IMG/VR virus record: IMGVR_UViG_3300028837_002886
Coordinates: 32,001-96,000 of that record
Reading direction: 5' to 3' (one strand)
Origin: a virus
Length of the DNA: 64,000 bases
Below, in pieces: positions 14,934-64,000 of this stretch. Every line of letters begins with the position of its first letter. Within the stretch, counting starts at the first letter, position 1. Below the pieces are notes generated by a model, which was given only the letters and a program-made list of their open reading frames with translations, ran no database searches and was not told the origin of the DNA. The translations under genes and the position numbers were made by a program.

Positions 14934-14962
14934 ATTATAACCTATATTGCTCGTCCTGTAAA
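14934..14962 (-). promoter_or_regulatory. Sigma70-type promoter TTTACA-N17-TATAAT, leaderless
   Basis: Exact 17-bp spacer; ATG 6 nt after the -10 box. Confidence 0.8.
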
Positions 14963-15151
14963 GGCCGATCGGCCAGAAGAAATGACGGGTTTCCACTGCG
15001 CGCAGGTGGGTATCTTTGGTGATCGATACACGTTTAAGTTAATACACTTAGAAGTGGTGCCAATTGGAATATTCACACGCCAACGACACGTCAAGCATGT
15101 TTTATTCATCAAAAGCATTTTAGCTTTTTTCTTGCGTGTCCAGTTTGCCAT
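14942..15151 (-). CDS. Small Cys-rich protein, AKxLL family
   Basis: MANWTRKKKAKMLLMNKTCLTC. Confidence 0.65.
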   Translation of the reverse strand: MANWTRKKKAKMLLMNKTCLTCRWRVNIPIGTTSKCINLNVYRSPKIPTCAQWKPVISSGRSAFTGRAI

Positions 15152-15428
15152 TATGTTTTTTCCGCATAAGAGATATGTATTTTTTATGCGTACGTTCCAC
15201 ATGTTGCCAGAAGTCATCACGCTTATGGGCGTCATTCACATGAGGATAGTAATCTTCACAAAACAGTTCTTTTGGGACATCACACATTCCGCTGTCGTGT
15301 AAAAATGTGTTTCTTTCTTCAAGTCGACAATACCAGTCTTTATATTCAAAAGAGCCCTTTATACAATAGAGGCAATTTATACATCCTTTATCTAATAGCA
15401 GTTTTTTGGCGACGTTCGCTTTTTTCAT
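15120..15428 (-). CDS. Small Cys-rich protein, AKxLL family
   Basis: MKKANVAKKLLLDKGCINC. Confidence 0.7.
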   Translation of the reverse strand: MKKANVAKKLLLDKGCINCLYCIKGSFEYKDWYCRLEERNTFLHDSGMCDVPKELFCEDYYPHVNDAHKRDDFWQHVERTHKKYISLMRKKHNGKLDTQEKS

Positions 15429-15652
15429 ACTATACGTTTTGAACCTTCCCAAAAATCACATGTTCCCATGACATTTATTTTACAAACTTTACCAATAAAG
15501 TCATGATTTTTATTGTTACTCCAAAGCGGGTGCGCGCAATAATGCCCTATATTATTGCCGTATGCATCTAAATGATAAAAATGTATGCACCTCTGACATG
15601 TTTTACCTAATAATAATTTTTTTGCGCACTCTTTTGTAAATCTATCTCTCAT
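15425..15652 (-). CDS. Small Cys-rich protein, AKxLL family
   Basis: KECAKKLLLGKTCQRC. Confidence 0.7.
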   Translation of the reverse strand: MRDRFTKECAKKLLLGKTCQRCIHFYHLDAYGNNIGHYCAHPLWSNNKNHDFIGKVCKINVMGTCDFWEGSKRIV

Positions 15653-15852
15653 TTCGTTTTATAACCGCGGTAAAAGTCCCGACATGTATAATCATTGGAA
15701 ATATTTTCGTCTACACCACTCTGCCGCGAACGCAACATGCATAAGTATTGGTATTTATGTGTTTTTGGATGAAGACGTCGGTATCCGTAAAGGCACTTGC
15801 AACAGTTTTTGTCCAACAATAATTTTTTAGCTACAACGCTCTTGCTTATCAT
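15649..15852 (-). CDS. Small Cys-rich protein, AKxLL family
   Basis: KSVVAKKLLLDKNCCKC. Confidence 0.7.
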   Translation of the reverse strand: MISKSVVAKKLLLDKNCCKCLYGYRRLHPKTHKYQYLCMLRSRQSGVDENISNDYTCRDFYRGYKTK

Positions 15853-16448
15853 GGCATAGTTTCAGGATTAGAAAGCATACTGATAAAGGACCTGTATTCG
15901 CGTATCATGTTTATGAATATGTGTCCTTGTTCAATAGCATCATCAATAGCCTTGTGAGTGTGCTTGTGTGCCGTATTCATCCACCGGCCTGGCATCCTGG
16001 CTTTTGTTACTTTTCGGTACTCGCAATTTATCAAAAACATTGCAAAAGTTTTCATGTCCAGCGCAGAAAACGAAAATGGCGAATGCTTCATGAATCTTAT
16101 GAGATACCAGTATACAAAAGTGAAATCAAAACCTGCGGGAAAAGCAACGAGCACGGGTTTGCAGTTAAACTTCAAAGCGGTTGCAGTGACCCACTTGTGA
16201 AACCGTTTCATTACTTCTTCCGGATCTCCGGGATTCTTTCGGCATTCATCCCACGCCTCTTTGTTGCGACTCCAGAACTTCATGGTATTAGGATCCTGCT
16301 CTGCATCCGGAAGTTCCTTGAGATTAGCTTCAAATGTTCCTACCATGTTTCCTTCACGGTCAAATGCCGCGGCCGCAATGCTCAACATAGAGTTAGGACC
16401 AGGTATGGGACCGTCTGCTTCTACGTCAACACTAAAGTACATTTCCAT
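15849..16448 (-). CDS. DEDDh 3'-5' exo(ribo)nuclease (Rv2179c/RNase AS-like)
   Basis: SVDVEADG, GFD, LDMKT, HKAIDDA. Confidence 0.85.
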   Translation of the reverse strand: MEMYFSVDVEADGPIPGPNSMLSIAAAAFDREGNMVGTFEANLKELPDAEQDPNTMKFWSRNKEAWDECRKNPGDPEEVMKRFHKWVTATALKFNCKPVLVAFPAGFDFTFVYWYLIRFMKHSPFSFSALDMKTFAMFLINCEYRKVTKARMPGRWMNTAHKHTHKAIDDAIEQGHIFINMIREYRSFISMLSNPETMP

Positions 16449-16899
16449 CTTGTTTACCCTTTTCCATTATTTTATTCAAATCCATATTGAATGGATCAAA
16501 TCTTTTTTTGTATGCATCAGTTTTTTTATAGTTTTCTTCCTGATAATGTCTGGCCAAAACTATTTGTTCGGTGGCCTTTTTAATCTTTTTAGATATACGC
16601 ATCATTATGCGCTCTTCCCAATGTTTAGGATACCTGATGCGCCAGCTATACACTATTTTGTAAGCGTGACCGCCGACCTTCATCATACAATACATAAAAG
16701 CCGCATACAGCGCAACTTTAATATACCACGTCATGAGCTCGTGATTGTGAAACATACACAGCCCTATGGCCAACAAAGCACCTACGCCGATCCAAATAAT
16801 AATGCCGCTCCATACGCTTGCTTCTTTCTCCTTTTTCATAAACAGCCCCTTCTCCTGTAAATTATTATCATGATAAGTTCTTCCGCGAATCAAACGCAT
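16432..16899 (-). CDS. Two-TM membrane protein
   Basis: Two hydrophobic segments; start uncertain. Confidence 0.55.
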   Translation of the reverse strand: MRLIRGRTYHDNNLQEKGLFMKKEKEASVWSGIIIWIGVGALLAIGLCMFHNHELMTWYIKVALYAAFMYCMMKVGGHAYKIVYSWRIRYPKHWEERIMMRISKKIKKATEQIVLARHYQEENYKKTDAYKKRFDPFNMDLNKIMEKGKQDGNVL

Positions 16900-17896
16900 C
16901 TCTCACGCCTTCTCCAACAAAGATGAGAAGTGAAAGTAAAACCGAAAGCACCACAAATGAAGTAATTCCTAACCAAGGCGCCTGCAAATTGGCCTTTCCT
17001 TGAGCCAGTAATCTCCCTAACGAAGGAGATCCGGCTGGAAGCCCGAATCCCAGAAAATCAAGAGAAGTAAGAGCGACGATGGAACCATTTAGAATGAACG
17101 GCAAAAACGTTAACGTAGCAACCATTGCGTTAGGAAGTATATGCTTAAACATAATCTTAAAATCTTTGACACCCAAGGCTCTTGCGGCTTTAACATACTC
17201 AAAATTTCGGGTCCGTAAAAATTCTGCGCGCACTACCCCAACTAACGACAGCCATGAAAACAAAAGTAAGATTAACAACAGCAACGCAAAGTTTGGAGTA
17301 ATAATACTAGTAATAATTATTATCAAAAACAATGTTGGTATCGAGCCCCAGATTTCAATGAACCTTTGCATCAATAGATCAACTCTACCACCAAAATAAC
17401 CCTGAACCGCTCCTGCCATTATTCCGATAGCAGAACTACATGTGGTCAATACAAGTCCGAAAATTACAGATATCCTGAAACCGTAAATCACCAGCGCGAC
17501 TACATCATGACCTTGGTCATCGGTTCCCAGCCAATGTCTCAGAGAAGGTTTAGTTGGTGCTGGTTCCGTCATTATATAATCAATTGTATCAAATTTATAC
17601 TTAATCGCTGGCCAGATAATCCAGCCGTTGTTTTTTATCAACTCTTCAAGATATGGATCATGATAATCTGCCTTTATGTTTAATGTCCCGCCGAAATCCA
17701 TCTCCGTATAATTTTTGGTTATTGGAAAGTAAAACCGATCTGCGTATCTTATAAGCAGAGGACTATCGTTTGCTATGAACTCGGCAAAAAGTGAAAAAAC
17801 AAAAAGAAAAAGGAATATCCAGAGCGACCAGTACGCCCTTCTGTTTGCTATAAAATTATCTAATCTTCTTCTTGCTACCAGGCTTAGTTCTTTCAT
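16868..17896 (-). CDS. yejE: Oligopeptide/microcin C ABC transporter permease YejE
   Basis: NRRAYWSLWIF, AEFIANDSPL, HWLGTDDQG, RAEFLRTRNFEYVKAARALG, GEGVRDAFD. Confidence 0.92.
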   Translation of the reverse strand: MKELSLVARRRLDNFIANRRAYWSLWIFLFLFVFSLFAEFIANDSPLLIRYADRFYFPITKNYTEMDFGGTLNIKADYHDPYLEELIKNNGWIIWPAIKYKFDTIDYIMTEPAPTKPSLRHWLGTDDQGHDVVALVIYGFRISVIFGLVLTTCSSAIGIMAGAVQGYFGGRVDLLMQRFIEIWGSIPTLFLIIIITSIITPNFALLLLILLLFSWLSLVGVVRAEFLRTRNFEYVKAARALGVKDFKIMFKHILPNAMVATLTFLPFILNGSIVALTSLDFLGFGLPAGSPSLGRLLAQGKANLQAPWLGITSFVVLSVLLSLLIFVGEGVRDAFDSRKNLS

Positions 17897-17905
17897 CCCT
17901 AATCC

Positions 17906-18325
17906 TTATTCCAGGACTGCTTCGGTCACTCCCCAAATTTTAATTTCCACGACCTCTCGATGTTCAGTAAACACAAATACACCAAAATACTCTTCGCGCG
18001 AGTCAACACGTCTATTGCCTTGGTGATATACTTTTAGATGCTGCACTACCTGCTTGTTCTGCGTATTCATATAGACATACAAGTACTCCATCGTCCATCC
18101 TATTACCACTTCGCTTCCCTTGTTAGTCAAAACATACGAAACTGAAACCAGCGAACCAACCTGGGTCCAATCTCTTAATTCAATCTGTAAGGGAGACATA
18201 ATGCCCTGTTTCTCATAGGCCTTCTTGGATGAAAAGTGGTTCGGATATTTTGCCACACTTCCTACAATCACCGCAAAACCTATAAGAAATGAGATAAATA
18301 ATATATCACGGCCGCGTTTTGTCAT
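17906..18325 (-). CDS. Membrane-anchored hypothetical protein
   Basis: N-terminal TM followed by a beta-rich domain. Confidence 0.6.
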   Translation of the reverse strand: MTKRGRDILFISFLIGFAVIVGSVAKYPNHFSSKKAYEKQGIMSPLQIELRDWTQVGSLVSVSYVLTNKGSEVVIGWTMEYLYVYMNTQNKQVVQHLKVYHQGNRRVDSREEYFGVFVFTEHREVVEIKIWGVTEAVLE

Positions 18326-18340
18326 GTCATGACCCCTTTA

Positions 18341-18535
18341 TTAAGACGTCTCATTTATCTCAGCAAGTCGTTTCACGCTCTTTGCGTGAAACTCTGCGTG
18401 CTTAGTCAAATGAGACTTTTCCCACTCAATCATTGCTTCTAGGTTGGCAATATGTTGTGCGCCTTCTGCCAGGTACTTCTCATTCCAAGCAATCTTTGCT
18501 TCAAGCTGTTCTTTAGTCATATGATTACAACTCAT
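18341..18535 (-). CDS. Small coiled-coil protein
   Basis: Internal repeat LEAKIAWNEK/LEAMIEWEKS. Confidence 0.6.
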   Translation of the reverse strand: MSCNHMTKEQLEAKIAWNEKYLAEGAQHIANLEAMIEWEKSHLTKHAEFHAKSVKRLAEINETS

Positions 18536-18682
18536 CTCTACTTTCCTTAATTAAGTATTTACTTTTAATACCCGCCATTTATATAGGACGGCCGGCAATG
18601 CTTTCTCATTTTCCGATCCATATAACCCTTGTAGTACACATGATGGAACCGAAAAGTGTACTTAAACCATCTTCCTATGATC

Positions 18683-18931
18683 CTACTCAATCTTTTCATG
18701 ACGCATCTCCTTTAGTTTCTTTTTTTCAATCCGTATTGAAACACAATCGCTATATGTTCTCACATAGTAGGCCCAGCCCTTAATTACTTTCACCTGCCAC
18801 TCATATTTGTCACCATAAAGATCTTGAATCTCAGCCACTCGCTCACGCGCATCAATAAGATGCTTAAAAACTTCTACGGAGACATCAGTATGGGTATCTT
18901 CTGTAATAACTATGTACACTTCCATTTTCAA
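18683..18931 (-). CDS. Hypothetical protein
   Basis: ORF in the minus-strand operon. Confidence 0.6.
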   Translation of the reverse strand: MKMEVYIVITEDTHTDVSVEVFKHLIDARERVAEIQDLYGDKYEWQVKVIKGWAYYVRTYSDCVSIRIEKKKLKEMRHEKIE

Positions 18932-18960
18932 CCACCTTGGTTTATTTTTAATCTCACTTT

Positions 18961-19219
18961 TTACACCTCGCGCGTTTCAAAGTCAATACGAGGATCTATG
19001 AACATATACATCACAACCACAACCACCTATCTTTTTTTTCTCTACCGCATTTCTCACATCGAAAAATAGCTATGCGCAGAGTTCCTCCCCATATAGCATA
19101 ATACATGCCACGTTTCCACTGATGCTTACATTTCACCAAACGATTCCATATTTTCTTTAATCTTTCCATCAAACCTCTCTAGTTTCAAAGTCAATACGAG
19201 GATCTATGAACATATACAT
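18961..19219. repeat. Direct repeat of the yejB 3' end (18974-19011 = 19182-19219, 38 bp identical) flanking one small gene
   Basis: GTTTCAAAGTCAATACGAGGATCTATGAACATATACAT occurs twice, 208 bp apart. Confidence 0.95.
19011..19169 (-). CDS. 52-aa zinc-ribbon-like protein
   Basis: Translated by hand: MERLKKIWNRLVKCKHQW...RCEKCGREKKDRWLWL; TGATG overlaps at both ends. Confidence 0.65.
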   Translation of the reverse strand: MERLKKIWNRLVKCKHQWKRGMYYAIWGGTLRIAIFRCEKCGREKKDRWLWL

Positions 19220-20272
19220 TAGATCTCCGATTAGTTTTAGAAATAAACCCATGAGACTAAATACATATAGTGTCGCAAACATTACCGCATAATCCCTGCC
19301 CAAGGCCGACTCGAACCCCAAGAGCCCTAGCCCATCAAGAGAGAAAATTACTTCTATTAAAACAGAACCGGTGAATAGAACGCTTATAAATGCAGATGGA
19401 AACCCGGCAATAATAATCAACATGGCATTTCTAAACACGTGACCATAAAGAATTTTCTTCTGCTTGAGGCCTTTTGATTGAGCTGTGATTACATACTGCT
19501 TGCTTATTTCAGCCAAAAACGCGTTCTTTGTGAATATAGTAAGGCCTGCAAACCCGCCTATTGTCATCGCAAATATAGGTAGTACCAAATGCCAAAAGTA
19601 ATCGGCTATCTTCATGCCAAATGAAAAGGTGGCCCACCCATCTGAGACCAATCCTCTTAAAGGAAATATATTCAAAAAGCTCCCGCCAGAGAAGAGTATT
19701 ATCAACATAATGGCAAATAAGAAACTGGGTATTGCATAACCAATTGTTACAACAAATGAACTCCATAAATCGAATTTTGTTCCATCTCTTATTGCTTTCT
19801 TGATGCCTAGTGGAATTGAGATTAGATAAGTCAATAGCGTTGTCCATATACCCAACGAGATTGACACTGGCATTTTCTCTAAAACCAAATCAAGAACTTT
19901 TCTGTCTCTGTAATAGCTGGTTCCAAAATCAAACCTTATGTAATTCCACATCATAATAAAAAACCGTTTATAAAGTGGTTTATCAAAACCATACATCTCT
20001 TCAATTTCCATAATCAGTTCGGGATCCAATCCTTGAGCTCCTCGATACTTTGACTCCATCCCAACCTGCTTGTCTGTTTTTGTTTGACTAACCTCGCCAC
20101 CACCACCTTTCGTTATTCTTTCAGTAACTGCAACATCAACGCCTTTGAGCCGAGCAATCGTTTTTTCAACAGGACCACCTGGGGCCGATTGTATTATGAA
20201 AAAATTAATAATCATAATCCCAATTAGTGTAGGAATAATAAGACCCAAGCGTCTGAGGATATAGGATATCAC
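19169..20272 (-). CDS. yejB: Oligopeptide/microcin C ABC transporter permease YejB
   Basis: YILRRL...APGGPVE, YRGAQGLDPE, YGFDKP, HVFRNAMLIIIAGFP, DPRIDFE. Confidence 0.95.
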   Translation of the reverse strand: MISYILRRLGLIIPTLIGIMIINFFIIQSAPGGPVEKTIARLKGVDVAVTERITKGGGGEVSQTKTDKQVGMESKYRGAQGLDPELIMEIEEMYGFDKPLYKRFFIMMWNYIRFDFGTSYYRDRKVLDLVLEKMPVSISLGIWTTLLTYLISIPLGIKKAIRDGTKFDLWSSFVVTIGYAIPSFLFAIMLIILFSGGSFLNIFPLRGLVSDGWATFSFGMKIADYFWHLVLPIFAMTIGGFAGLTIFTKNAFLAEISKQYVITAQSKGLKQKKILYGHVFRNAMLIIIAGFPSAFISVLFTGSVLIEVIFSLDGLGLLGFESALGRDYAVMFATLYVFSLMGLFLKLIGDLMYMFIDPRIDFETREV

Positions 20273-20619
20273 TTCACAATCCTTGCTAAAAAGTCCCCAC
20301 CTATTATAATAACCCTATCGTCCTTAGTTCGAACAACCAGCACCCCACCATCTTCAAGCGACCAAGATTTACATGTTTCTATAACAGAGGCACTCCTGTA
20401 TGGTACATCAATATCAATCCAAGTTGTAGTCGCTACTCCGTCAATCACAACGGTGGGCTCGGTTAACATGGGCTCACTAACCTCTTGAGCCTGTGCCATT
20501 TCTGGTTGATCAAATTGAAGCCTACTTGCGATAAAGAGTACGGCGACAAAAACAAGAACCACAATAACAAAAATAATCACAAAACGTAAGGTTGTGGACA
20601 CACTTTTTAACCAACTCAT
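20269..20619 (-). CDS. Membrane-anchored hypothetical protein
   Basis: N-terminal TM. Confidence 0.6.
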   Translation of the reverse strand: MSWLKSVSTTLRFVIIFVIVVLVFVAVLFIASRLQFDQPEMAQAQEVSEPMLTEPTVVIDGVATTTWIDIDVPYRSASVIETCKSWSLEDGGVLVVRTKDDRVIIIGGDFLARIVK

Positions 20620-20632
20620 TTTTAAAAACCTC

Positions 20633-22210
20633 CTAAATTATATCAAATGCAGCCTTAACTAGAGCTTGTGTATATACGCTCTTTGGTTTCTCAAGGACCT
20701 CTCCAGCCTTGCCCTCCTCCATAACTACACCATCTTTAATAACGATAATCAAATGACTCATCGCCTTTACAACGCGAAGATCGTGACTTATAAATAAATA
20801 TGCCAGTTTATAGGTGCGCTGCAACTCTAATAAGAGATCTATCAGCTGATTTTGAATTGATCGATCCAAAGCTGATGTAGGCTCATCTAGAATTAAAAGT
20901 TTGGGTTTTAACACTAGCGCTCTAGCTATACATATGCGTTGTCTTTGACCTCCACTAAACTCGTGTGGATATCTATTTCGGATGTCTGGCTCCAAGCCTA
21001 CTTTGATTAAAGTTTGCCATACCATATCATTCCAACAACCCTTAATGTTGTGAGCGGATAATCCTTCTTCTATAATTTGGCCTACAGTTAAACGAGGGTT
21101 AAGGCTTGCGAAAGGATCTTGAAACACAATTTGAATTTCTTGTCTGTAAGGTCTCATTTCTCCACTTAGAAGATTGTTTAATTCTACGCCTTGAAACTTG
21201 ATCTGGCCTTTACTAGAAATCAATCTCAAAACCGCTAACCCAAACGAGGTTTTGCCCGATCCGCTTTCTCCAACCAAACCGACCGTCTCTCCCTCTTTGA
21301 TTTTAATCGTGATTCCATCAACAGCTTTCACATATCCTTTTACTTTCCTGAACATGCCTTTATATATAGGATAATGTACTTTAAGATCGTTGGTTTCTAA
21401 AACTAGTTTTTTCTTGGTAGTTTCTATAGGCTTTTGCTTTGGAATAGACGCAAGCAAATACTTTGTATATGAGTGTTGAGGATGTTTAAAAATACTAAGA
21501 TTATCCCCGCTTTCTACAATCTCCCCATCTTTCATTACGCCAATACGGTCAGCCATTTTTTCTACTATATAAAGATCGTGCGTGATTAACAACATTGACA
21601 TATGTAACTTGTCGCGAAGCTCTCTTATGAGCTTCAATATCTCTCGCTGTATCGTGACATCCAGAGCGGTTGTGGGTTCGTCTGCTATTAATAAATCTGG
21701 CTTGTTTGCGAGAGCTAAGGCTATCATAACTCGCTGTCTCTGACCGCCAGACAACTGGTGCGGAAATGAACTCAAGCGCTGCTCGGCATGATCTAGCTGA
21801 ACCTGATCCAACAACTCGATCGTTCTTGCCCTTCTTTCGCCCCCTGTTACATCTTGATGAAGATCGATAATCTCACCGATTTGCTTCTCGATTGTATGGA
21901 GAGGATTAAGCGATGTCATAGGCTCTTGGAATATTATAGAAACATCATTTCCTCTAATCTTTCTCAATCTCTCCTCGGAACATTCAAAAACATTGTTGTT
22001 CTTTAATATTATTGAGCCATCGTATCTCGTATAAGCAGGTAACAGTTGCATAATCGCATGAGCGGTGGCCGACTTACCTGCTCCACTTTCCCCTACGAGA
22101 GCAAAAGTTTCTCCTTTTTTAATGTCAAAAGAGACACCTCGGACAGCATCAATGCGCTGTTGAGGCATCTCAAACTTTACAAATAGATTCTTTATAGTGA
22201 GTAAGCTCAT
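20633..22210 (-). CDS. yejF: Dual-domain ABC transporter ATPase YejF
   Basis: Two Walker A motifs (GESGAGKS, GESGSGKT), two SGGQRQR, two DEPT; adjacent to yejB/E. Confidence 0.9.
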   Translation of the reverse strand: MSLLTIKNLFVKFEMPQQRIDAVRGVSFDIKKGETFALVGESGAGKSATAHAIMQLLPAYTRYDGSIILKNNNVFECSEERLRKIRGNDVSIIFQEPMTSLNPLHTIEKQIGEIIDLHQDVTGGERRARTIELLDQVQLDHAEQRLSSFPHQLSGGQRQRVMIALALANKPDLLIADEPTTALDVTIQREILKLIRELRDKLHMSMLLITHDLYIVEKMADRIGVMKDGEIVESGDNLSIFKHPQHSYTKYLLASIPKQKPIETTKKKLVLETNDLKVHYPIYKGMFRKVKGYVKAVDGITIKIKEGETVGLVGESGSGKTSFGLAVLRLISSKGQIKFQGVELNNLLSGEMRPYRQEIQIVFQDPFASLNPRLTVGQIIEEGLSAHNIKGCWNDMVWQTLIKVGLEPDIRNRYPHEFSGGQRQRICIARALVLKPKLLILDEPTSALDRSIQNQLIDLLLELQRTYKLAYLFISHDLRVVKAMSHLIIVIKDGVVMEEGKAGEVLEKPKSVYTQALVKAAFDII

Positions 22211-22235
22211 AATAACCTTGAGGGGTCAGTTACAT

Positions 22236-23324
22236 TTACCAGCGCTTTTTAAGTGTATGCGTGAGAACCTCGCACCCGCCCTTTGTTACAAGAATGTCAT
22301 CCTCAAGACGAACCCCATAATCACCAGGTAAATAGATACCTGGTTCTACTGTTAAAACCATGTTTTCTTCAAACACGTCAGGATATTGGCTGTCATGAAT
22401 GTCAAGCCCAATACCATGCCCAAGTCCATGAATCCAGCTGTTCTTATATCTCCCATATCCAGTTGTTATTTTCTTCGCCTCTTTTATTACATCTTCCGAC
22501 TTAATCCCAGGTTTAATCATGCTAATGGCAAGCAGCTGCGCTTCAAGAACTTTATTGTACATATGTTTTTTCCATCGATCTGGAGTTCCCATAAAATATA
22601 CCTGAGTAATATCAGACTTGTAGCCCTCGACCTCAGCACCAAAATCAATGAGTACTACATCATCTTTCATTAGGGTGGTGGTTCCAGAAGAGTGGTGAGG
22701 TACACTGGTATTCTTTTCAAAGGCCACGATGGTAGAGAACGCAGGATCATCTGAACCCATCTTCTTCATATGATACTCCACCTCGGCCGCTAAATCCATC
22801 TCGCTCATTCCCTCATGTAAAAATGTAGGTAATATTACAGTTAGTCTACTAACTATTTCGCATGCGCGTTTTATTTTATCTATCTCATCCGGAGATTTGA
22901 TACTTCTGCGCTTTGCAAAAAGATCCGTTACATCGAAAATTGAGTTACGAGCTACAAAGATTTCCTCTATTGTACGATAAGAGCTGTGTAAAAGAGAGCC
23001 AAAGCAAAGTCCTATCTTATAGAACTTTGGGAGGATTTTCTTAAGCATTTCATCTCGCTCTTGTATTTTACTCCAAACTACAAATTCGTCATAGCTTGCC
23101 TGGCGTCGATTTAGCTCTTGATCTCGACTTGGTGAAAATAATGTAATCTTCCCGCTTTTCTCCAGGAGTACTGCAGCCCCCTCGCTTTTGGAGGAAGTAA
23201 AGCCCGTTACATACGTGAGATTCTTATCTACAATCATATCGCTCCAGAGAAATATTGCGTCACAGTTGCCTGGCATTCCGTCTATGATATTCTTAATCCT
23301 CGGTTTACACTCGTCTTTAATCAC
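22236..23324 (-). CDS. Xaa-Pro aminopeptidase/dipeptidase (M24B)
   Basis: PHH, IDFG, SDIT, HGLGHGIGLDIHD, VEPGIY, GVRLED. Confidence 0.92.
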   Translation of the reverse strand: MIKDECKPRIKNIIDGMPGNCDAIFLWSDMIVDKNLTYVTGFTSSKSEGAAVLLEKSGKITLFSPSRDQELNRRQASYDEFVVWSKIQERDEMLKKILPKFYKIGLCFGSLLHSSYRTIEEIFVARNSIFDVTDLFAKRRSIKSPDEIDKIKRACEIVSRLTVILPTFLHEGMSEMDLAAEVEYHMKKMGSDDPAFSTIVAFEKNTSVPHHSSGTTTLMKDDVVLIDFGAEVEGYKSDITQVYFMGTPDRWKKHMYNKVLEAQLLAISMIKPGIKSEDVIKEAKKITTGYGRYKNSWIHGLGHGIGLDIHDSQYPDVFEENMVLTVEPGIYLPGDYGVRLEDDILVTKGGCEVLTHTLKKRW

Positions 23325-23336: not shown

Positions 23337-24359
23337 TTAAACAGATTTTACTTGCTCATCAAGATAACTAAATACGTTTTCGGACTTTACAACATGATGA
23401 TTTATTTCAATCTTGTCCAAATCGTGTGCTGTTATAAAATCAAATATGAAGTCCTTTTGTCTGTTGGAAAAGTCGCCATCTAAATTATACATTCTAAAGG
23501 ATGAAATCTTAACCCAGTTCTGTCGTTCTAAATCGTTCTCCTGTGTGACGTTTTCCACAATTCCCTCTTCTGCTAATGCTTCCATAAGAACAATGTGTCC
23601 CATATAAGGACAAGGATAAAAATCTCCATCGGGGCTAAGCCATCCAGAAGAAGAATCTTTCGGTTTTCCCTTTGTTGCTCCAAGGCTATCTATTTTTGTT
23701 TCATTTTCGATAAACTCATCTGTCGTCCTGGGGCCGGCCGCTATGCTCTCGTTAAGCTTTCTTATTGATGCATCAAAAAGCGTTTTTGCGTTTTGAGCAT
23801 CTAGATCGTCTTTTATATAACTCGCATCTTTGCTGAACTCGGCATTTCTTAACGCCTCTTCGACTTTGTTTTCAAAATCCGTAATGGATCTGTTTGATAT
23901 GTTATAAAGAAACATTAAATTTCTCAAATATTCAAATGTTTTTTTCTCCATACTCAAGGCGGCGTTTTTGGCTTCTGTTTGTGTATCAAGTATTCCAACT
24001 CCCCGACCAAGACCAAGATATTTAATCATGTTGTTTCTAAGGGTGAGATCATATTTAAGTTTATCGGTCCTTAGCTCGATATATTTCTTTTCGAACCAGT
24101 CCATCATCTCATCAGTAGTGATTCCCTTGTAATTGTCGGTTTCTGAATAAAGATTTGGATCGTTGCGAGTATCTCCACCTAGTTTCATGCGGCCTTCGAA
24201 CAAACTAATAGCTTGTTCTTCATTCATTCCCAGACCCTCTTTTGCTGTTTTAAAAGCATGTATACAACTTCTTTCTTCCCAGAGATCCCTCATAATTTTA
24301 GTCAGGTGTTCTCCGGTTGTCCAGAATGTTAAGCTTTGATCCTTCATTTGTTTATCCAT
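23337..24359 (-). CDS. Hypothetical phage protein
   Basis: 340-aa ORF with GWLSPDGDFYPC...H motif. Confidence 0.7.
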   Translation of the reverse strand: MDKQMKDQSLTFWTTGEHLTKIMRDLWEERSCIHAFKTAKEGLGMNEEQAISLFEGRMKLGGDTRNDPNLYSETDNYKGITTDEMMDWFEKKYIELRTDKLKYDLTLRNNMIKYLGLGRGVGILDTQTEAKNAALSMEKKTFEYLRNLMFLYNISNRSITDFENKVEEALRNAEFSKDASYIKDDLDAQNAKTLFDASIRKLNESIAAGPRTTDEFIENETKIDSLGATKGKPKDSSSGWLSPDGDFYPCPYMGHIVLMEALAEEGIVENVTQENDLERQNWVKISSFRMYNLDGDFSNRQKDFIFDFITAHDLDKIEINHHVVKSENVFSYLDEQVKSV

Positions 24360-24631
24360 TAGATACTGAGCTCCTCGTAATCCTTAGTGTACAGTTTTTC
24401 GTTTATTTTTTCAATGGCATAATGTTTTGCGTCCCAAGAATCATGAAAATCTTTGACCTTAACCTGGAGTTTTTTATTCAGCTCTATACGCCCCCACTTG
24501 GTGATCACCTGATTGCCTTTTACCGAAACCATCCAAACCTTGTAATGGTTGTCGCTGGTACAGAAAAAAACTCTTTCATCACACTCTTTTGTGAGCATAT
24601 ATCTCGCGAGCTCAGAGTTTTTAAGTTCCAC
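24359..24631 (-). CDS. WGR-domain protein with N-terminal ARYML tag
   Basis: NHYKVW...VITKWGRI...KINEKLYTKDY. Confidence 0.7.
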   Translation of the reverse strand: MELKNSELARYMLTKECDERVFFCTSDNHYKVWMVSVKGNQVITKWGRIELNKKLQVKVKDFHDSWDAKHYAIEKINEKLYTKDYEELSI

Positions 24632-24866
24632 TCAACTCCTCCCTCAAAGCTTTTAACTCTTTATAGTGTTCGCATGTTCTAGTCGTTGGCACATCAGACA
24701 CACGTCTCTCGAGTGTTCTCTTTCGATCTGGTTCCCGGTATTCTGGAACGCACCAAACAGGGTAGCCGGAATCCATAATACTCCCCCGAGTTCGCCATCC
24801 ACACGTCTCACAGTTTTTAAGTAAAAGCCCCTTGGCTATTTCTGCTTTGGCTGAAACCATTCGCAT
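24621..24866 (-). CDS. Small Cys-rich protein, AKxLL family
   Basis: KAEIAKGLLLKNCETC. Confidence 0.7.
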   Translation of the reverse strand: MRMVSAKAEIAKGLLLKNCETCGWRTRGSIMDSGYPVWCVPEYREPDRKRTLERRVSDVPTTRTCEHYKELKALREELSGT

Positions 24867-25084
24867 TTCCCATCGTGGTTCAGGATTTCATCACAAGTCC
24901 CGGCATGTTCCAACTTCAAACGTTTGTATTTCTTTTTCCGCAATATTCTTTTTCTGCCAGGAAGCTTGCAAAAAGAAAATCCGTAATCCAATCCCATGGT
25001 GAAAATATAATGCCGGCATCCTTCGCATGAGTGAATATCTCTTCCCAACAGAAGATTTTTGGCTTCTGCCGACTTATAATCCAT
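24836..25084 (-). CDS. Small Cys-rich protein, AKxLL family
   Basis: KSAEAKNLLLGRDIHSCEGC. Confidence 0.7.
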   Translation of the reverse strand: MDYKSAEAKNLLLGRDIHSCEGCRHYIFTMGLDYGFSFCKLPGRKRILRKKKYKRLKLEHAGTCDEILNHDGKCEWFQPKQK

Positions 25085-25271: not shown

Positions 25272-25613
25272 TTATTCATTGGAACTCCCTAGAAGTGATT
25301 TTGCTGTGTTTCTTTTTTCGATTTGTTTTTCGTTGGCTATGTCAGCAAGCTGTTTAGAGTATTTCACTATAAGATTACGACCTTTTTCAATATGCTCGCT
25401 GGTGAGATGTCGGCCATTTTTGAGCCATTCTGCATAATAACTGCCGCGCTTGGCATCAAAAGCACTAAAACCGACCCCATTGCTATATAGAGTGGATTCA
25501 GCAACTTGCTCGGAAACTGCTTGTTTGCCGTAAATGGCCAGTATTCCTCTTTCAACAGCCTTGTCTGATTTTGATAGTAACTCTTTGATTTCTTCTTTGG
25601 TATAAGTTTTCAT
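25272..25613 (-). CDS. Hypothetical phage protein with C-terminal AKSLL
   Basis: First gene behind the 25648 promoter. Confidence 0.75.
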   Translation of the reverse strand: MKTYTKEEIKELLSKSDKAVERGILAIYGKQAVSEQVAESTLYSNGVGFSAFDAKRGSYYAEWLKNGRHLTSEHIEKGRNLIVKYSKQLADIANEKQIEKRNTAKSLLGSSNE

Positions 25614-26066: not shown

Positions 26067-26187
26067 TTCTCAGCCACCTTTCTATAAAAGTTCCCATTGA
26101 GACTTTTTTTTCTTCTAAAAGAAGACGCTTGGCTACCTCTTTTCTGTACCAAACATCAAAGTCGTCGAAGTTTCTGATCTTGTTCAA
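26005..26187 (-). CDS. Small protein, AKxLL family
   Basis: RKEVAKRLLLE. Confidence 0.55.
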   Translation of the reverse strand: MNKIRNFDDFDVWYRKEVAKRLLLEEKKVSMGTFIERWLRNDKAPVREISSDRSNKEIDS

Positions 26188-48001: not shown

Positions 48002-48011
48002 TGTATTCCTC

Positions 48012-53734: not shown

Positions 53735-55386
53735 TCGTATTTCTCTATATTCGCTTTTGTATATATATGCTTGAGCTCGAGTTTTACTTCTTTAGCCCAA
53801 CCGAATGTAATCCTTGGGCTTACATATGACGCCAATGATGTGCCGAGGTTCAGGTCCAATGACTTTTTCTGTAGGTATGTCTGAAGCTTAAGTTTTTCAA
53901 CCTGTTCTTCAAGTCTGATGATCCGTTTTGCCCACATATCTTTTTTGTGTCTGTAAGATTTGTTGGCCCTGTAAATGGCTCCTCTTAGGTTCGAGTTCTT
54001 GTATTTTCTTTTATAGTTGGCAACCTTTCTTTGTTTTTCTTTCAAGGCTTGCGACAGCTCCTTCTTGCTTATTTCTTTATATGCCTTTAGGAGCTTTTTC
54101 TTGTCTATGAGTTTTGCTTGTTTATTTTTCAAACCCTTTTTAGCTGCTTCCGTCGGTGTCTTGCGATGGTTGAGTTTCTTGGCCACCAGCATATTTGCTT
54201 CTTTGAAAATCTTGATCTTTTCATTAACAGAAAGGTTCTTATCTTTATGCTCATTCAAGTAGTTTCTCATAATAGCGGTTGCTAATGCTGTCCGGAAAAC
54301 TTTCGCAGTAAGACATGGCTCAAACTGTCCCAAGAGTTCGTTGACATCCTTGGATGTTACATTGGCGAAAACCTGGTCATCGGGCTTCTTGTTTTCCATG
54401 AGCTTCTTTATGTTAGCCACCGTCTTTGCCGGTAGCTCCGCATAATCGCTGTATAATATACTGTCCTTGCCTAGAAACTTGAAGTATGTATAATGCTCAT
54501 TGTCGTCGGAAAACTCGATATGCTTTCTCAGTAAAGTGGTAGCTCCGTATGTGTCAGCTTCGTCTTCATCTTTTTCATCACCAACCCTGAAACCGAGTCG
54601 GGCTATCAAACTACACACAACTGCGGTTTCCCTGTCGAACTTGCTGTCCATTCTGCTGTCGATAAAGTCAATCGCTTCCGGCATTTTGTCAATCAGCTTC
54701 ATGGCTTTTTCGAACTTTTCGACATCATTGGTTTGTCTGATGTATGCCTTGGGACTTGGCATAACATACTTGTAATTACCGGTGAGTTTATCAAACCAAA
54801 ACGCGAACCACATCGCATCATGATTGTGAACGATGTTTCCCCATTTGCCAGCGGGATTGGGAGCATTTTCCCCAACGTTAAGGGTGACATCTTCAGAAGT
54901 GACGCGAGGCTTCCACCTGCCCCTAAGTGGATTTTTACCTCGACCCATAAATATTCCGGGCGGCTCGATTATATAGTTTGCAATCTCTATTTTTTTGCCA
55001 TCCATGATGGCAACGCCGAACTTTTCTTTGCGAGCCGCCTTTTCGGCTTTTTCTTCTTCTTTTTCCTCTTTGCCCCTATTTTTCTTCTTTTCTTTCTCTA
55101 TTTGAATTTTGTTGTAGTATTCCGTGAAATCCCAATCATCGGGGAACCTTGTCGCGACCAAGTCAGCAGGGAGCTTTTTCTTCAGGTCGGCCCAGAAGTT
55201 TTTCTGATAAACCTTGTCAAGAACATACTGAGTTTGGAGCCTGGCTGCCCAATGATAAATCATTTCTTCGGCATCCGGATTACCATTGAACGATACTGGC
55301 TTTCCTTGAACCTTTATTGGAAAACCTTTGGGTTCGAAAGGTGGTGAAAATGATGGGCCATTGTGTCTAAGAGTTGTCCACTTCAT
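53722..55386 (-). CDS. DNA topoisomerase IB, long eukaryote/archaea type
   Basis: KWTTLRHNGP, EPPGIFMGRG; catalytic pentad FRVGDEK, FLGKDSI, AKVFRT, LNH, GTSLASYVSPRI. Confidence 0.95.
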   Translation of the reverse strand: MKWTTLRHNGPSFSPPFEPKGFPIKVQGKPVSFNGNPDAEEMIYHWAARLQTQYVLDKVYQKNFWADLKKKLPADLVATRFPDDWDFTEYYNKIQIEKEKKKNRGKEEKEEEKAEKAARKEKFGVAIMDGKKIEIANYIIEPPGIFMGRGKNPLRGRWKPRVTSEDVTLNVGENAPNPAGKWGNIVHNHDAMWFAFWFDKLTGNYKYVMPSPKAYIRQTNDVEKFEKAMKLIDKMPEAIDFIDSRMDSKFDRETAVVCSLIARLGFRVGDEKDEDEADTYGATTLLRKHIEFSDDNEHYTYFKFLGKDSILYSDYAELPAKTVANIKKLMENKKPDDQVFANVTSKDVNELLGQFEPCLTAKVFRTALATAIMRNYLNEHKDKNLSVNEKIKIFKEANMLVAKKLNHRKTPTEAAKKGLKNKQAKLIDKKKLLKAYKEISKKELSQALKEKQRKVANYKRKYKNSNLRGAIYRANKSYRHKKDMWAKRIIRLEEQVEKLKLQTYLQKKSLDLNLGTSLASYVSPRITFGWAKEVKLELKHIYTKANIEKYEWAK

Positions 55387-55775
55387 AATAGAACATCCGC
55401 CTTTAGTAAGAGTTTTGCTTTTTCCCTCTTGGTTATTTCTCTATAAAAGCCGTCGATAAGCAGTTGGTATATATCCATCTTGTGCATCCGGTCAATGCCC
55501 GCGACCTCCAACGTATCGATATTTAGTTCAAAAACCTCTGTCATATGGCTGTATTTTATTTTTTGCTGACCTTTTCTGGGATGAAAATCTGTATCATCGA
55601 TATGGCCCGGATTAAATATGATATAGCGCTTATTTCTTATGTCATAAAGGACACGATTTTGCTTTATGTTGTAGAGAACTTTTATGTTACGCATTTTTGA
55701 TGGCATCTGCCTGCTCTCTAATGAGTTTTCTCGAACTATAGTAAAGCTTATCCCAGTTTTTTGTTCCGAAACCAA
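55383..55775 (-). CDS. Hypothetical protein, C-terminal AKxLL
   Basis: ITKREKAKLLL. Confidence 0.6.
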   Translation of the reverse strand: MVSEQKTGISFTIVRENSLESRQMPSKMRNIKVLYNIKQNRVLYDIRNKRYIIFNPGHIDDTDFHPRKGQQKIKYSHMTEVFELNIDTLEVAGIDRMHKMDIYQLLIDGFYREITKREKAKLLLKADVLL

Positions 55776-60371: not shown

Positions 60372-63119
60372 TTATTGTTGTCTCTTTACTGGTGCCCATC
60401 CGGCTGCTATCATTTCTTCAGGTTTGGTTACATAAGGGTTGATTCGTATAACGTTGCCTAATGGAAGTTGATGCTTAATGGGTACGCTTCCTTCGTGAGC
60501 TATTTTCTCCCACCATTGCACATTAATGTGATCAACCGAAAGAAGACGTTTGGCTATCATAGTCCTAGGTTTCAATTTCACTTACAATCCTTACTACAAT
60601 CAAATTAAAGCACTCGTCGTTCTTTTTCAAGAGCTTTGAGAAAAAGGATGGTTTGCGCAGCAAAACCGCGCAATGCTTTTGGTAATCCTCTTTTGTCTCT
60701 TCTGTTATAACCTCATCCTCGCAGAGCTGGTCCAGCAGTATATTTTTGACTTTTTGGAACTCTTCTTCCAACGCGCTTCTTGTCATATTAAACATGTTTA
60801 TTGTTCCCATAATTACTCCTCTTTCAAATCGTCTCTGGCTGAGTTTTTGCTATTCTTGTTGGTAAAATTTTCTTGTTTGAGACTTTGAATTATTCGATAA
60901 TACTTGTAGGTTTCGTCAATAACCTCTGCGCGCACGACACCGAGCCAATGTTTATATTGTTTTTTATAATCTTCTTCGTCTTCTATGGTAACAGGAATGG
61001 CAATACCACCCTGAACTTTAACACTTTCAAAGTCATCCACGTTTTTTGTGAGTTGAAAATTAACAGTTAGAGTTATTTCCTTAGACATATTATTCCCTTT
61101 TGATTTATATATGCTATCACATCCAAACATAAGCGCGTAATAATTAGCGCAGTCGCTGCCCCGGCCACTAACTGAAGAGCGAAAATGTCAGGAGTATTGT
61201 TGAATAAAACAAACGCACCAACGACAAAAGCTATTTTTGAAACCAAACCAAAAAGAGTCATTTTACTAGTTTTCCTTTTGCGATTGCTCGTTTTCTTTGA
61301 GGGGTGTTCTTGCCGAATATATAACCATACATATCTATGCCGCGGGCCCAATCAGCATATAGAGCCGCCCTGTCTTTCGCATCTATTTCTATTTCAGGGC
61401 AGTTTTCTGAAGTATTCTCGTACTTCCACCCCATACGTGCTGGACTTGCTTGACCGCCATCAATGAATAAATTACCACATGAACAGTAATGAAAATCATG
61501 GATTGCGCGACTGTATATAATATCGCCGCATAAAGTGCATTTTATACCGCTCACTATCATATTAAAAGCTCCTTGGCGTGTTTCTTTTTTATTAAAGGAT
61601 CTATTATTTCGTATATACTTGAGTTGCGGTTTGATAAGCGCGAAATCTCTGCTACTAATATCTATTTTCTTCAGTTTCATCCTTGTTGCTCTCGCGCAGT
61701 ATAAAGACTGCTTTTTTGGAGTTGAGCTTCTTTATAAGTTTTTCGTTTTCCACCAACTCGAGACACCGAAAACTTGGGAGCCTTTCCCAATGTTGTCTTT
61801 GGAACTTGCCGGTCTTTTTCTTATAGGCAATCATCATCATGCCTTTGTAGTGTAGTTCTTGGGCATACAAGTATATCTCGTCCTTGCGGTCAAGAGGCCA
61901 GGCCTTCATGAACCATTTACCCAAAAGAGAGTTGAGCATTATTTCATTTGCCGTCATATAATAGATACCTCTTCGCGTATTCTCGTTTTGTCAAAGGTCT
62001 TGTTTCGTTTCTTGTAAGAGCCCTGAATGTGCTAGCCTTCCACCAGCTATGCTTACTTTCGCAATGGTCTCTCGACATATAGCTATCCATTCTGACAAAA
62101 TACATAATCCTACCAGCGTTGGTCTTTCTGTGTCTTAGCACGGTATAGAATTTGCCATTGTCGTTCCATGTTTTATCGGACCACCTGAAATCTTGGCCTG
62201 CGTATACACTACCAACCTTTATTTTTCGTGACATCCAACACCTTCTTTACCAACTTGACTGTGCGAATGGCTTTGTTTTTATCGCTGACATCAGGAGGCA
62301 AATTCGTTATAGCCTCCATAACCAAGTCAAACATCTCCATTAATTTTTTCGGAGTCCATTCTTCCGTCGGCTCTGTAGGATTTAACAGTCTTTTAGCTCG
62401 TTCGGTTCTTTCTTTTGCCATTCGTAACATTCCTTATACAGCCTCTTATGTATTTTATCGACTTCTTTTCGACACGATTCATACGTTTTGTTTTGCCACG
62501 TTTCACACTCTTTTTTCATGGCTTCAATCTCCGCGGCCGTTGTCCTCTGCGGTTTTTCCAGTGGAGGATTTAATAAGGCTTTTGCTTTTTTTGTTTTTGG
62601 TTTGGCCATATGTAATCAACTACCTCTCGTTTAGTCATCTTTCTCATCGTGGTGTTGCCACAACTCCAGGTTATCATCAAGATACTCTTCAAGGTTAATC
62701 TTGATACGATGTGGTGTTTTCCACATTTCCCAATTTTCTCTTTCTTGATCAAGTGGTTGTCGCGACCGTATGATCTCGCCCCACATTTCTTCCACTTCGC
62801 TGGCTGTTTTCTCTGGCGGGTTCAAAAGGTCTTTAGCTCTTTTTGTTTTCTCTTTTGGCATGACGTCTTATCTCTTTTATAATGTTATTGTCGAACTCAT
62901 GGGCCATTTCTTCAGATACAATACGCCGTAGTAATTCTTCGACAGACGGCGGATTGAGAAGCTCTCTGGCTTTTTTTGCTTTTTCTGTCAATTGCTATTA
63001 TCAACCAGCGAGATATCGTTTGTGTATTCAACAGTTACATAATCTTCTGCTTTGGCAACACCAGCAATTATGATCAGAAACACAATAGTCACAACTATAA
63101 AAATCCAAGCCTTTTTCAT
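60372..63119 (-). CDS. Operon of about 12 small overlapping genes, most with AKxLL-type motifs; includes a Zn-finger gene (61258-61680) and four AKxLLNP genes (62209-62430, 62382-62609, 62631-62861, 62833-62991)
   Basis: IAKRLLS, YAKRYLL, RAKRLLNP, KAKALLNPP, RAKDLLNPP, KARELLNPP; CTLCGD...HDFHYCSCG..IDGG. Confidence 0.65.
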
Positions 63120-63230
63120 AATATAGCCTCTTTATTTTCACCCTTATATATGTTATGACGTTTATTGTTTATAATAAGGGTGGACATATTTGAGTGTTAA
63201 TCTACAACCTTTCTGATCGTTTACAATATT

Positions 63231-63259
63231 AATATATCATACCTCATGAGTTCTGTAAA
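63231..63259 (-). promoter_or_regulatory. Sigma70-type promoter TTTACA-N17-(TGa)TATATT
   Basis: 17-bp spacer, intergenic. Confidence 0.7.
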
Positions 63260-63262
63260 GGG

Positions 63263-63463
63263 TTATTTTGTTTCGGGGAGGGGGCACCACTCTGGTATTT
63301 CCAAAGATTCTTCTAACCTCAGATCTTTTTCCGAACGTTTTATTTGACGGGATTTTACGGAGCAAACGTAGCCACTATTCCAGTAACAATCATGAACATC
63401 CTCGAACTCAAGACATGGGCACTCGTTACAATAGTTGATCTCATATTTGAGTTCTCGGCACAT
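63263..63463 (-). CDS. Small Cys-rich protein
   Basis: CNECP...C...IPEWCPL. Confidence 0.7.
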   Translation of the reverse strand: MCRELKYEINYCNECPCLEFEDVHDCYWNSGYVCSVKSRQIKRSEKDLRLEESLEIPEWCPLPETK

Positions 63464-63504
63464 GATAGTTCTCTGCGTGAATTGGTAGAACTATCTTGTC
63501 TCGA

Positions 63505-63792
63505 TTATGATTTCAGATAAGCTTTGATTATACTATTACCAAGTTTTTTTAGGTTCTTTTTCAGATCTTTAATGTGACATATTTTTTGTTTATCCAAGAA
63601 CACTTCGTCGTTAGCGACCACAATGTCACCTCTGTATATGGCATCAACTCTATCTCTCGGCGGAGGGGTTTGCCAAGTTTTTCTTTTCCTCTGGCTCAAA
63701 GTTGTCGCAGAGTCTTTTATTCCGAAGTCCGGTTTTATAGGTCCCATTTTTCTCCTCTTTTTATTTAGTCCTGGTGCAAATTCAGGTCCCAT
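63505..63792 (-). CDS. Hypothetical protein
   Basis: Ends IIKAYLKS. Confidence 0.55.
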   Translation of the reverse strand: MGPEFAPGLNKKRRKMGPIKPDFGIKDSATTLSQRKRKTWQTPPPRDRVDAIYRGDIVVANDEVFLDKQKICHIKDLKKNLKKLGNSIIKAYLKS

Positions 63793-64000
63793 TTCCTTCT
63801 CTCAACATTAGTTTTGCCAACTCGCGCTTTGATAAGTCTATGCCACCTGTCAAAGCTACATTTACGTATCTGCCACGAATGAACGCTCCCATTACGGGTT
63901 CCTTGAAAAGTTTATCCTCACAGCTATCAAAACTCACCTGAAACAGCAACATTCCGTTTCTACGAATGAAGTTATATTTATTAGGATCTCTACTCACCAA
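63782..64000 (-). CDS. Hypothetical protein (5' partial), C-terminal AKLML
   Basis: LSKRELAKLMLRE. Confidence 0.55.
   Translation of the reverse strand: MVSRDPNKYNFIRRNGMLLFQVSFDSCEDKLFKEPVMGAFIRGRYVNVALTGGIDLSKRELAKLMLREGNGT

Follow-up and report, generated by a model that had tools for sequence, protein, structure and literature searches.

Exposed ends of proteins are read, on many different clients, by unfoldases and proteases of the AAA+ class, by systems for secretion or packaging and by the shells of compartments. Cargo-loading peptides of encapsulins and encapsulation peptides of microcompartments are short helices or peptides that occur at either end of unrelated cargo proteins and dock these to a single shell protein; the shells of encapsulins share their fold with phage capsids. 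CheY-binding peptides are helical, contain ...LL, lie at the N terminus of FliM and the C terminus of CheZ, and are bound by one small domain. The sliding-clamp motif (QL[SD]LF or QxxLxF) is a pentapeptide located at the N or C ends of, or inside, many unrelated proteins that meet at one hub. Degrons of AAA+ proteases lie at N or C termini and are transplantable, according to the accessible part of one source (PMC12723719); the ClpX degron of lambda O contains T-A-K-I-L and that of Dps T-A-K-L-V, as given in the accessible parts of that source and a second one (PMC12723719; PMC8138137). Here we describe a terminal tag, [A/T]-K-x-L-L, on proteins encoded in a 64,000-nucleotide stretch of viral DNA (the window), which comprises bases 32001–96000 of IMG/VR record IMGVR_UViG_3300028837_002886 (130,931 bp; the whole genome is called G000 below). 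We found the tag to be genuine, an autonomous short linear motif that is over-represented relative to composition, occurs on non-homologous proteins and is kept in orthologues.

Enrichment of the motif at protein ends

Completeness of G000 was estimated by CheckV at 70%, its G+C content is 0.41, and 201 of its 215 called genes are on the minus strand. The 215 proteins are the output of our own simple gene caller, run on the whole genome, so some N-terminal tag assignments depend on the start chosen. The preliminary description, made from the letters alone, had proposed a portable AKxLL tag at 27 sites. All 27 exist, 19 as strict AKxLL and 8 in loose forms (ARYML, AKAFL, AKIIL, ARELL, AKKIL, SKAFL, AKRYL and AKLML), and 26 of the 27 coordinates are the low end of a minus-strand open reading frame (ORF) with the quoted peptide; the remaining one, 25875, belongs to ORF 25783–25884. 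The sites in the window are listed here, (-) marking the minus strand.

15110–15124 (-): N-terminal AKMLL, Cys-rich ORF 14942–15151, start chosen at MANW...
15396–15410 (-): N-terminal AKKLL, Cys-rich ORF 15120–15428
15611–15625 (-): N-terminal AKKLL, Cys-rich ORF 15425–15652, modelled as helix (residues 7–14)
15817–15831 (-): N-terminal AKKLL, Cys-rich ORF 15649–15852
24593–24607 (-): loose N-terminal ARYML before a WGR domain, ORF 24359–24631
24822–24836 (-): N-terminal AKGLL, Cys-rich ORF 24621–24866; AKCLL in the orthologue of G001 (a relative, see below)
25049–25063 (-): N-terminal AKNLL, Cys-rich ORF 24836–25084
25290–25304 (-): C-terminal AKSLL, 5 residues from the end, ORF 25272–25613
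25828–25842 (-): AKQLL, 33-aa ORF 25783–25884
26034–26048 (-): N-terminal AKYLL, ORF 25872–26066
26119–26133 (-): AKRLL at residue 19, ORF 26005–26187, TTG start, overlaps its neighbours; uncertain gene
26282–26296 (-): loose AKAFL, ORF 26156–26332
26936–26950 (-): N-terminal AKNLL, membrane protein, ORF 26765–26977; AKTLL in the G001 orthologue
27202–27216 (-): loose AKIIL, ORF 26974–27231
32365–32379 (-): loose AKKIL, 23 residues from the end, ORF 32293–33033
43278–43292 (-): N-terminal AKDLL, ORF 43152–43331, absent from the preliminary description
52614–52628 (-): C-terminal AKILL, ORF 52599–52886; AKDLL in the G001 orthologue
52891–52905 (-): loose SKAFL, ORF 52870–53205
53196–53210 (-): C-terminal AKWLL, ORF 53187–53513
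53519–53533 (-): C-terminal AKRLL, ORF 53510–53734
55404–55418 (-): C-terminal AKLLL, ORF 55383–55706
60540–60554 (-): N-terminal AKRLL, ORF 60372–60581
61962–61976 (-): loose AKRYL, ORF 61944–62234
62383–62397 (-): N-terminal AKRLL, then NP, ORF 62209–62421, KKAKxLLNPP family
62571–62585 (-): N-terminal AKALL, then NPP, ORF 62382–62609
62823–62837 (-): N-terminal AKDLL, then NPP, ORF 62631–62861
62956–62970 (-): loose ARELL, then NPP, ORF 62833–62991
63803–63817 (-): loose C-terminal AKLML, ORF 63782–64201, which runs past the window; AKLLL in the G001 orthologue

Strict AK.LL (the dot standing for any residue) occurs 19 times in the 215 proteins, against 1.52 ± 1.26 expected from 500 per-protein shuffles, none of which reached 19 (maximum 7). 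Eighteen of these copies lie no more than 25 residues from a protein end, 10 of them N-terminal (0.23 expected) and 8 C-terminal (0.17 expected), and the single interior copy compares with an expectation of 1.09. When every gapped 4-mer in terminal segments was counted without bias, AK.LL ranked first (18 vs 0.36). The motif exceeds shuffled and interior backgrounds at protein ends, and its proposed occurrence at either end was borne out. Adding five small ORFs missed by the caller raised the terminal count to 26 (0.37 expected), a figure biased by the choice of those ORFs for bearing the motif. Six-frame counts were 7, 16 and 10 on the coding (minus) strand and 1, 0 and 3 on the plus strand. 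The loose form A[KR].[LIMF][LIM], strict copies included, was only modestly enriched over whole proteins (38 vs 13.4 expected; 16 vs 1.95 at N ends and 11 vs 1.66 at C ends), so some of the 8 loose sites may be due to chance. The same terminal scan of bases 1–50000 of phage T4 (90 genes) gave top counts of just 2–3, and the tag was absent there. The next most enriched terminal 4-mers in G000, YY.WY and MA.YY, are accounted for by a row of tandem paralogues of about 100 aa upstream of the window (genome 21550–23031; L082), four of which begin with MA[DE]YYKWY.

Codons at the A, K, L and L positions match the usage of the G000 genome (chi-square p 0.39–0.91): all four Ala codons, both Lys codons and five or six of those for Leu appear in the proportions seen genome-wide. 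This observation agrees with the earlier statement that codons vary freely and places the constraint on the protein, DNA not being the level selected.

Distribution among related phages

Relatives of G000 were found among viral contigs by scans with alignments of topoisomerase IB (A1) and of a conserved 148-residue protein (A3), whereas single-protein scans with the AAA_5 protein of the window (see below) and with topoisomerase IB found nothing. The related records, all of them incomplete contigs, are G001 (189 kb), G002 (388 kb), G004 (178 kb) and G005 (106 kb), which have 87, 44, 27 and 20 proteins, respectively, in common with G000. Terminal AK.LL was found 45 times in G002 (0.80 expected) and 12 times in G004 (0.27 expected), and terminal TK.LL 10 times in G005 (0.31 expected). 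Among terminal 4-mers AK.LL ranks first in G000 and G004 and second in G002, and TK.LL ranks first in G005. Since Cys-rich proteins of G004 also carry TK.LL, the motif is written as [A/T]-K-x-L-L. It is a trait of a clade of large and jumbo phages (G000, G001, G002, G004 and G005), whose G+C contents range from 29 to 41% and whose hosts are probably different. Small metagenome contigs beside topoisomerase IB are tagged as well, for example by an N-terminal AKRLL on a MORN-like protein (L002). The record of G004 is labelled a provirus, and host-like flanks were not seen there.

A sixth record, G003 (121.5 kb), shares only 2 proteins with G000 (topoisomerase IB and one lectin-like protein), is unrelated otherwise and shows no enrichment of AK.LL (1 copy vs 1.2 expected). 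It has a terminal tag of its own, N-P-[ST]-[RK]-R (L126–L129, e.g. L126:615–19911), with 35 terminal copies, most of them 0–20 residues before the C terminus and a small number N-terminal; the form NP.RR by itself occurs 23 times (0.05 expected). Although some codons of this tag are skewed, its Ser is encoded by both AGT and TCN, so the tag of G003 likewise acts at protein level. In G004, an island of about 10 genes (95086–109973; L141–L142) has N-terminal Cys-rich motifs that, judged by eye, resemble those of radical-SAM enzymes.

Anatomy of the tag and its carriers

Terminal [A/T]KxLL copies pooled from the five genomes numbered 102, of which 54 were N-terminal and 48 C-terminal. Among the N-terminal copies, 26 of 54 have their A/T at residue 7 (range 2–15), and at C ends 42 of 48 copies have no more than 7 residues after LL, the mode being 2 (15 of 48). 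Another L directly follows LL in 25/54 copies at N ends and 11/47 at C ends, and the second residue after LL is enriched in N, G or D, which are helix breakers. The x residue is free at N ends (N, A, R, K, H, L, D and others) and is I or L in just 17 of 48 C-terminal copies. Carriers of the tag are small, with a median of 87 residues vs 114 for all proteins. In an AlphaFold2 model of the Cys-rich carrier 15425–15652 (43-row alignment; mean predicted local distance difference test score 61.7, i.e. low to moderate confidence), residues 7–14, which hold the tag, form a helix before a small, strand-rich cysteine domain. With low to moderate confidence, then, the tag would end a short helix as its final turn, with L as the usual next residue and a helix breaker (N, G or D) after it. 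Terminal position and this low-confidence model also suggest that it lies in exposed regions. In three carriers a hydrophobic helix follows the basic N-terminal segment on which the tag lies, and by the positive-inside rule the receptor of the tag should be cytoplasmic; carriers as a whole are probably small cytoplasmic or cytoplasm-facing proteins. A membrane-targeting amphipathic helix was considered and rejected, as residues preceding the tag are acidic or polar in G002 and the invariance of A and K speaks against such a helix.

Several carriers form families. The Cys-rich family (7 members in G000) has the pattern M-x(5-10)-AKxLL(L)-x-K-x-C-x-x-C...C...TC-x-x-W, with four conserved Cys after the tag, and a profile of it matched 2 proteins in G001, 15 in G002, 3 in G004 and 8 in G005. 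Among 1.84 billion proteins it has 39 representatives at E≤1e-3, of which 34 contain strict [AT]KxLL, a share biased by the presence of the motif in the search profile. Four G000 carriers belong to the KKAKxLLNPP family and two to a membrane-protein family, and G002 has tagged MORN proteins in tandem. The preliminary description, which held the bodies of the carriers to be unrelated, went too far in this respect. It was right for the folds that cannot share ancestry (WGR, Terminase_6N, TROVE+vWA_Ro60 and MORN_2), which make the tag wider than the paralogue families; zinc-ribbon-like and membrane proteins are tagged as well. Pfam (E≤0.05) gave no family for 18 of 20 carriers tested, the exceptions being WGR (24359–24631) and a weak match to DUF3566. 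With the tag masked, no pair among 39 G000 carriers matched at BLASTP E<0.02; as BLAST lacks the power to detect the Cys-rich family, this result sets a lower bound on relatedness.

The proposed portability held up when orthologues were compared, since they keep the tag while their bodies diverge and its place changes between them. Fixed tag positions are identical in 38 of 44 cases in 11 alignments between G000 and G001 (own tally; overall identity 30–67%), 4 of which cover little beyond the tag region. The large terminase subunit of G002 carries the tag on an N-terminal extension of about 35 residues, which the G001 terminase is without. The G000 protein encoded at genome 126892–127299 ends in VKSLLKT, and its G002 orthologue has AKDLL inside an internal 19-residue insertion. 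These comparisons show a tag that is kept by purifying selection and has been gained, lost or moved on individual proteins. It is both portable and inherited, with paralogue families explaining part of the count.

Carriers had also been described as early cargo placed almost without exception in operons behind TTTACA-N17-TATAAT promoters. The tagged terminase of G002 contradicts a restriction to early cargo. With at most one mismatch, the promoter sequence occurs on the minus strand at window positions 14962, 25648, 30551, 31175, 42593, 56371, 56937 and 63259. Such elements lie upstream of the clusters at 52.6–55.7 and 60.4–63.0 kb and of part of that at 24.4–27.2 kb, but none lies directly upstream of the cluster at 14.9–15.9 kb; from this partial check, most carriers would lie behind sigma-70-like promoters.

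Candidate receptors and alternative explanations

G000 encodes two MoxR-type AAA+ modules, each with metallopeptidase and vWA parts, both located in the window:

28578–29672 (-): MoxR AAA+ ATPase
27274–28578 (-): DUF2201 metallopeptidase-vWA; with the MoxR ATPase (27274–29672) a candidate receptor by inference
44953–45699 (-): HExxH peptidase half of a second, split module (44953–49118)
45689–48001 (-): AAA_5 ATPase of the second module
48012–49118 (-): vWA-like half of the second module

Both modules recur in each of the five genomes with the tag. Seven G000 proteins have matches in all four of the others: the MoxR ATPase, the metallopeptidase-vWA, the three parts of the second module and two proteins without known identity, for which the ESM Atlas gave no usable match. 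The HExxH motif and the vWA DxSxS motif of the peptidase-vWA are invariant in 62 aligned homologues, and about 10 tagged genes in a row come right after the MoxR operon of G000. The second module is likewise a candidate receptor. The small carrier ORF 26974–27231 (minus strand), just downstream of the peptidase-vWA gene, has nearly the same last 17 residues as that protein (...EDAPRNKGL[A/T]VHIKKDK), as though part of the 3' end had been duplicated.

We lean towards the view that one common receptor in the cytoplasm of the infected cell recognises all carriers through the tag. What kind of receptor this would be is a guess, held with little confidence: an AAA+ chaperone or protease machinery acting on exposed protein ends, which might be either phage-encoded (the MoxR ATPase and its metallopeptidase-vWA partner) or a host unfoldase of the ClpX type. 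Recognition would then lead to timed processing, remodelling or removal of accessory proteins. An AAA+ handle is ranked first, at low confidence in the receptor, on account of the MoxR modules in all five genomes, the adjoining row of tagged genes and the likeness to ClpX degrons.

Several points weigh against this explanation. The receptor is a candidate that we infer from sequence, and the presence of MoxR modules in all five genomes is weak evidence because the five are relatives that share other genes, structural ones included. The vWA metal site normally binds an acidic ligand residue, and the conserved charge of the tag is a lysine. The likeness to ClpX N-motif-1 is out of register, and that class is N-terminal only. 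G001, the closest relative, has 9 terminal copies (2 N, 7 C) and 9 interior ones (2.1 expected in total); AK.LL is outside its top five terminal 4-mers, making it the weakest case of the five. Paralogue expansion inflates the count, the Cys-rich family providing 24 of the 54 N-terminal copies. In addition, the accessible part of Iyer et al. 2021 (PMC7824862) proposes virion assembly and processing of structural proteins for the MoxR/peptidase-vWA pair, and not a role in turning over accessory proteins. A single complex prediction for the DUF2201 peptidase-vWA (A5, 62 rows), zinc and the carrier 15425–15652 (A4) gave a score of 0.00 (mark 0.32; controls not run), which tells neither for nor against binding. 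A small receiver-like protein (genome 117481–117813), flanked by tagged genes in three genomes, was considered as a hub by analogy with CheY and dropped: it is a cREC domain (PF20274) encoded beside an RlaP gene, and cREC/RlaP are assigned to RNA repair or nucleotide processing in the accessible part of Iyer et al. 2021 (PMC7824862).

Two alternatives keep a receptor and change its nature. The tag could be a cargo address by which carriers dock on the scaffold, the portal or the inside of the procapsid, to be packaged and injected, or on a tubulin-organised site of assembly or replication. It works at either end of varied cargo, as encapsulin and microcompartment peptides do, the tagged large terminase of G002 must meet the portal, and the clade has a structural module and a tubulin/FtsZ-like protein in common. 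The MoxR/peptidase-vWA pair has itself been linked to virion assembly, as far as the accessible text of Iyer et al. (PMC7824862) goes. However, most carriers are encoded in rows of small genes behind sigma-70-like promoters, outside the structural block, three resemble membrane proteins, which are unlikely capsid cargo, and only three genomes (G000, G001 and G002) yielded the tubulin-like gene, the contigs of the remaining two being incomplete. We consider a cargo address improbable.

Docking to one conserved host hub, such as RNA polymerase, a DnaK-like chaperone or a replisome or division protein, by which take-over proteins would be recruited, is unlikely to a similar degree. The carriers are mostly small accessory proteins without known function, few of which have a Pfam family (none for the 18 of 20 noted above). 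Conservation of the motif across phages of 29–41% G+C would fit a very conserved host target, and Leu-rich cores with basic flanks are typical of DnaK-binding segments. On the other hand, a late enzyme (terminase) and a Ro60 homologue are tagged too, and the consensus does not fit the clamp-binding QL[SD]LF.

Explanations that need no receptor fare worse. Tags might pair with each other, their Leu-Leu helices holding small proteins together in homo- or hetero-oligomers or in a condensate. A short helix with an LL(L) face and the side-by-side arrangement of many carrier genes are consistent with this, but for a zipper that pairs with itself a conserved core of five residues, A/T and K invariant among them, is small, and the idea is very unlikely. 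Equally poor is the case for common descent alone, in which carriers would be very diverged paralogues with one ancestral terminal helix and no shared present function. The Cys-rich (7 members in G000, 15 matches in G002), tandem MORN (G002) and NPP families are clear paralogues; yet the tag is found at N or C ends and once within a loop, is carried by non-homologous folds (terminase, Ro60, MORN and WGR) and is better conserved than the bodies of its carriers. Finally, an origin in chance, composition or a DNA or RNA signal at gene boundaries (promoter, ribosome-binding site or recombination cassette) might be read into the location of copies near such boundaries, the start codon of the next gene inside the tag codons at 53196–53210 and the preference for TTA at both Leu positions in G002 (p 0.017 and 0.002), but it is refuted for practical purposes, composition or chance by the shuffles and a DNA-level signal by the codon usage of G000, with a free x codon and a varying distance to the gene end pointing the same way. 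An effect of the translation-initiation region was likewise rejected, C-terminal copies speaking against it.

Other features of the genome

No match to G000 was found among 50,697 deposited phage records (megablast, two window stretches), and its helicase has only about 32% identity to proteins of Bacillus phages. Besides the helicase, G000 encodes a tape-measure-like protein, a DNA methylase, a CCA-adding enzyme and a YejF-like ABC ATPase. PHROGs searches of its proteins were mostly empty, and PADLOC gave nothing for 9 of 10 conserved proteins, the AAA_5 protein having one weak match to IetA. The following features were also observed:

53722–55386 (-): topoisomerase IB of eukaryote/thaumarchaeal type, three Pfam domains; identity 56–60% to phage relatives and about 42–43% to Nitrosopumilus-type archaeal proteins
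12138–12584 (-): 148-residue protein, unusually conserved (identity 76% in G001, 58% in G002 and 59% in G004, vs 25–45% for most proteins common to the relatives); no family in Pfam or PADLOC
16868–23324 (-): YejF-like double ABC ATPase (20633–22210), permease-like neighbours and a 362-aa protein matching phrog_24316; no BLASTP match for any of these in G001 or G002

Outside the window (L083, L084), four recognisable proteins are encoded at genome 108919–109917, 107663–108112, 115945–116802 and 120796–122802: a tubulin/FtsZ-like protein, Hsp20, a gp32-like single-strand-binding protein and a hybrid histidine kinase (PAS-HisKA-HATPase-REC). G000 encodes Pol III alpha as two separate pieces, of 406 aa and 702 aa (genome 125662–126882 and 118672–120780; L084), the latter with NTPase, finger and HhH domains, and both match a single 1381-aa protein of G002 (373123–377268). 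In the whole genome, the sequence AAGATAA(T) has 43 copies on the minus and 11 on the plus strand, which often lie 10–40 nt upstream of gene starts, those of structural genes included (window examples: 4503, 6059, 12627, 31143, 34246, 44936, 49601, 52605 and 58273); the copy at 52605 overlaps the stop codon of the tagged ORF 52599–52886. AAGATAA(T) may be a phage-specific promoter element.

Implications

Large phages might use private, lineage-specific protein address codes, with [A/T]KxLL routing about 7–13% of the proteome to one receptor encoded by the clade, such as the MoxR/metallopeptidase-vWA pair. We put this forward tentatively, as an idea clearly more doubtful than that of a single receptor. 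If it were true, then, together with the different tag of the same layout in G003, proteome-wide terminal tagging would be a general and undescribed way of organising phage accessory proteins. Most small phage proteins lack both a family and a known function, and a shared, transplantable tag offers a common experimental handle on dozens of them. Should one receptor read the tag, it would be a central control point of infection across a clade of large phages, and the tag would be a ready-made targeting or degradation peptide for engineering. The second tag, in the unrelated G003, suggests that the principle may be widespread and overlooked, as ordinary homology searches are blind to five-residue motifs. 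Scanning terminal gapped 4-mers against composition and interior sequence is simple and applicable to all phage genomes.

Comparison with known systems

In a literature search, which did not cover supplementary files, no such tag was found described and 'AKxLL' occurred in 0 papers, in agreement with the preliminary description, which knew of no matching system. The sliding-clamp motif resembles the tag in being a pentapeptide with two hydrophobic residues at its end on unrelated proteins. However, the tag has A/T at position 1 and K at position 2, lacks Gln and shows no enrichment of aromatic residues at either position 5 or position 6; a replisome needs far fewer than the 45 carriers of a single phage, and no sliding-clamp gene was found in the five tag-bearing genomes. 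CheY-binding peptides are similar in that one helical LL peptide serves at either terminus, but they are acidic whereas the tag has a lysine, and the sole stand-alone receiver-like protein here is the cREC enzyme domain (PF20274). Encapsulin and microcompartment peptides have a different consensus, and carriers of the tag are mostly apparent early accessory proteins, membrane proteins included. ClpX degrons, which comprise five classes at N or C termini, are, like the tag, short transplantable end peptides that hand varied proteins to one AAA+ machine. In N-motif-1 (lambda O and Dps), AK is directly followed by two hydrophobic residues, whereas the tag reads AK-x-LL; N-motif-1 is known only at N termini, whereas 48 of 102 copies of the tag are C-terminal. 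The group 2.2 jumbo phages treated by Iyer et al. 2021 (PMC7824862) have the same MoxR AAA+/metallopeptidase-vWA gene pair as the phages described here; the accessible part of that work describes the pair without a client tag, and the possible link between the pair and the [A/T]-K-x-L-L tag is proposed here.

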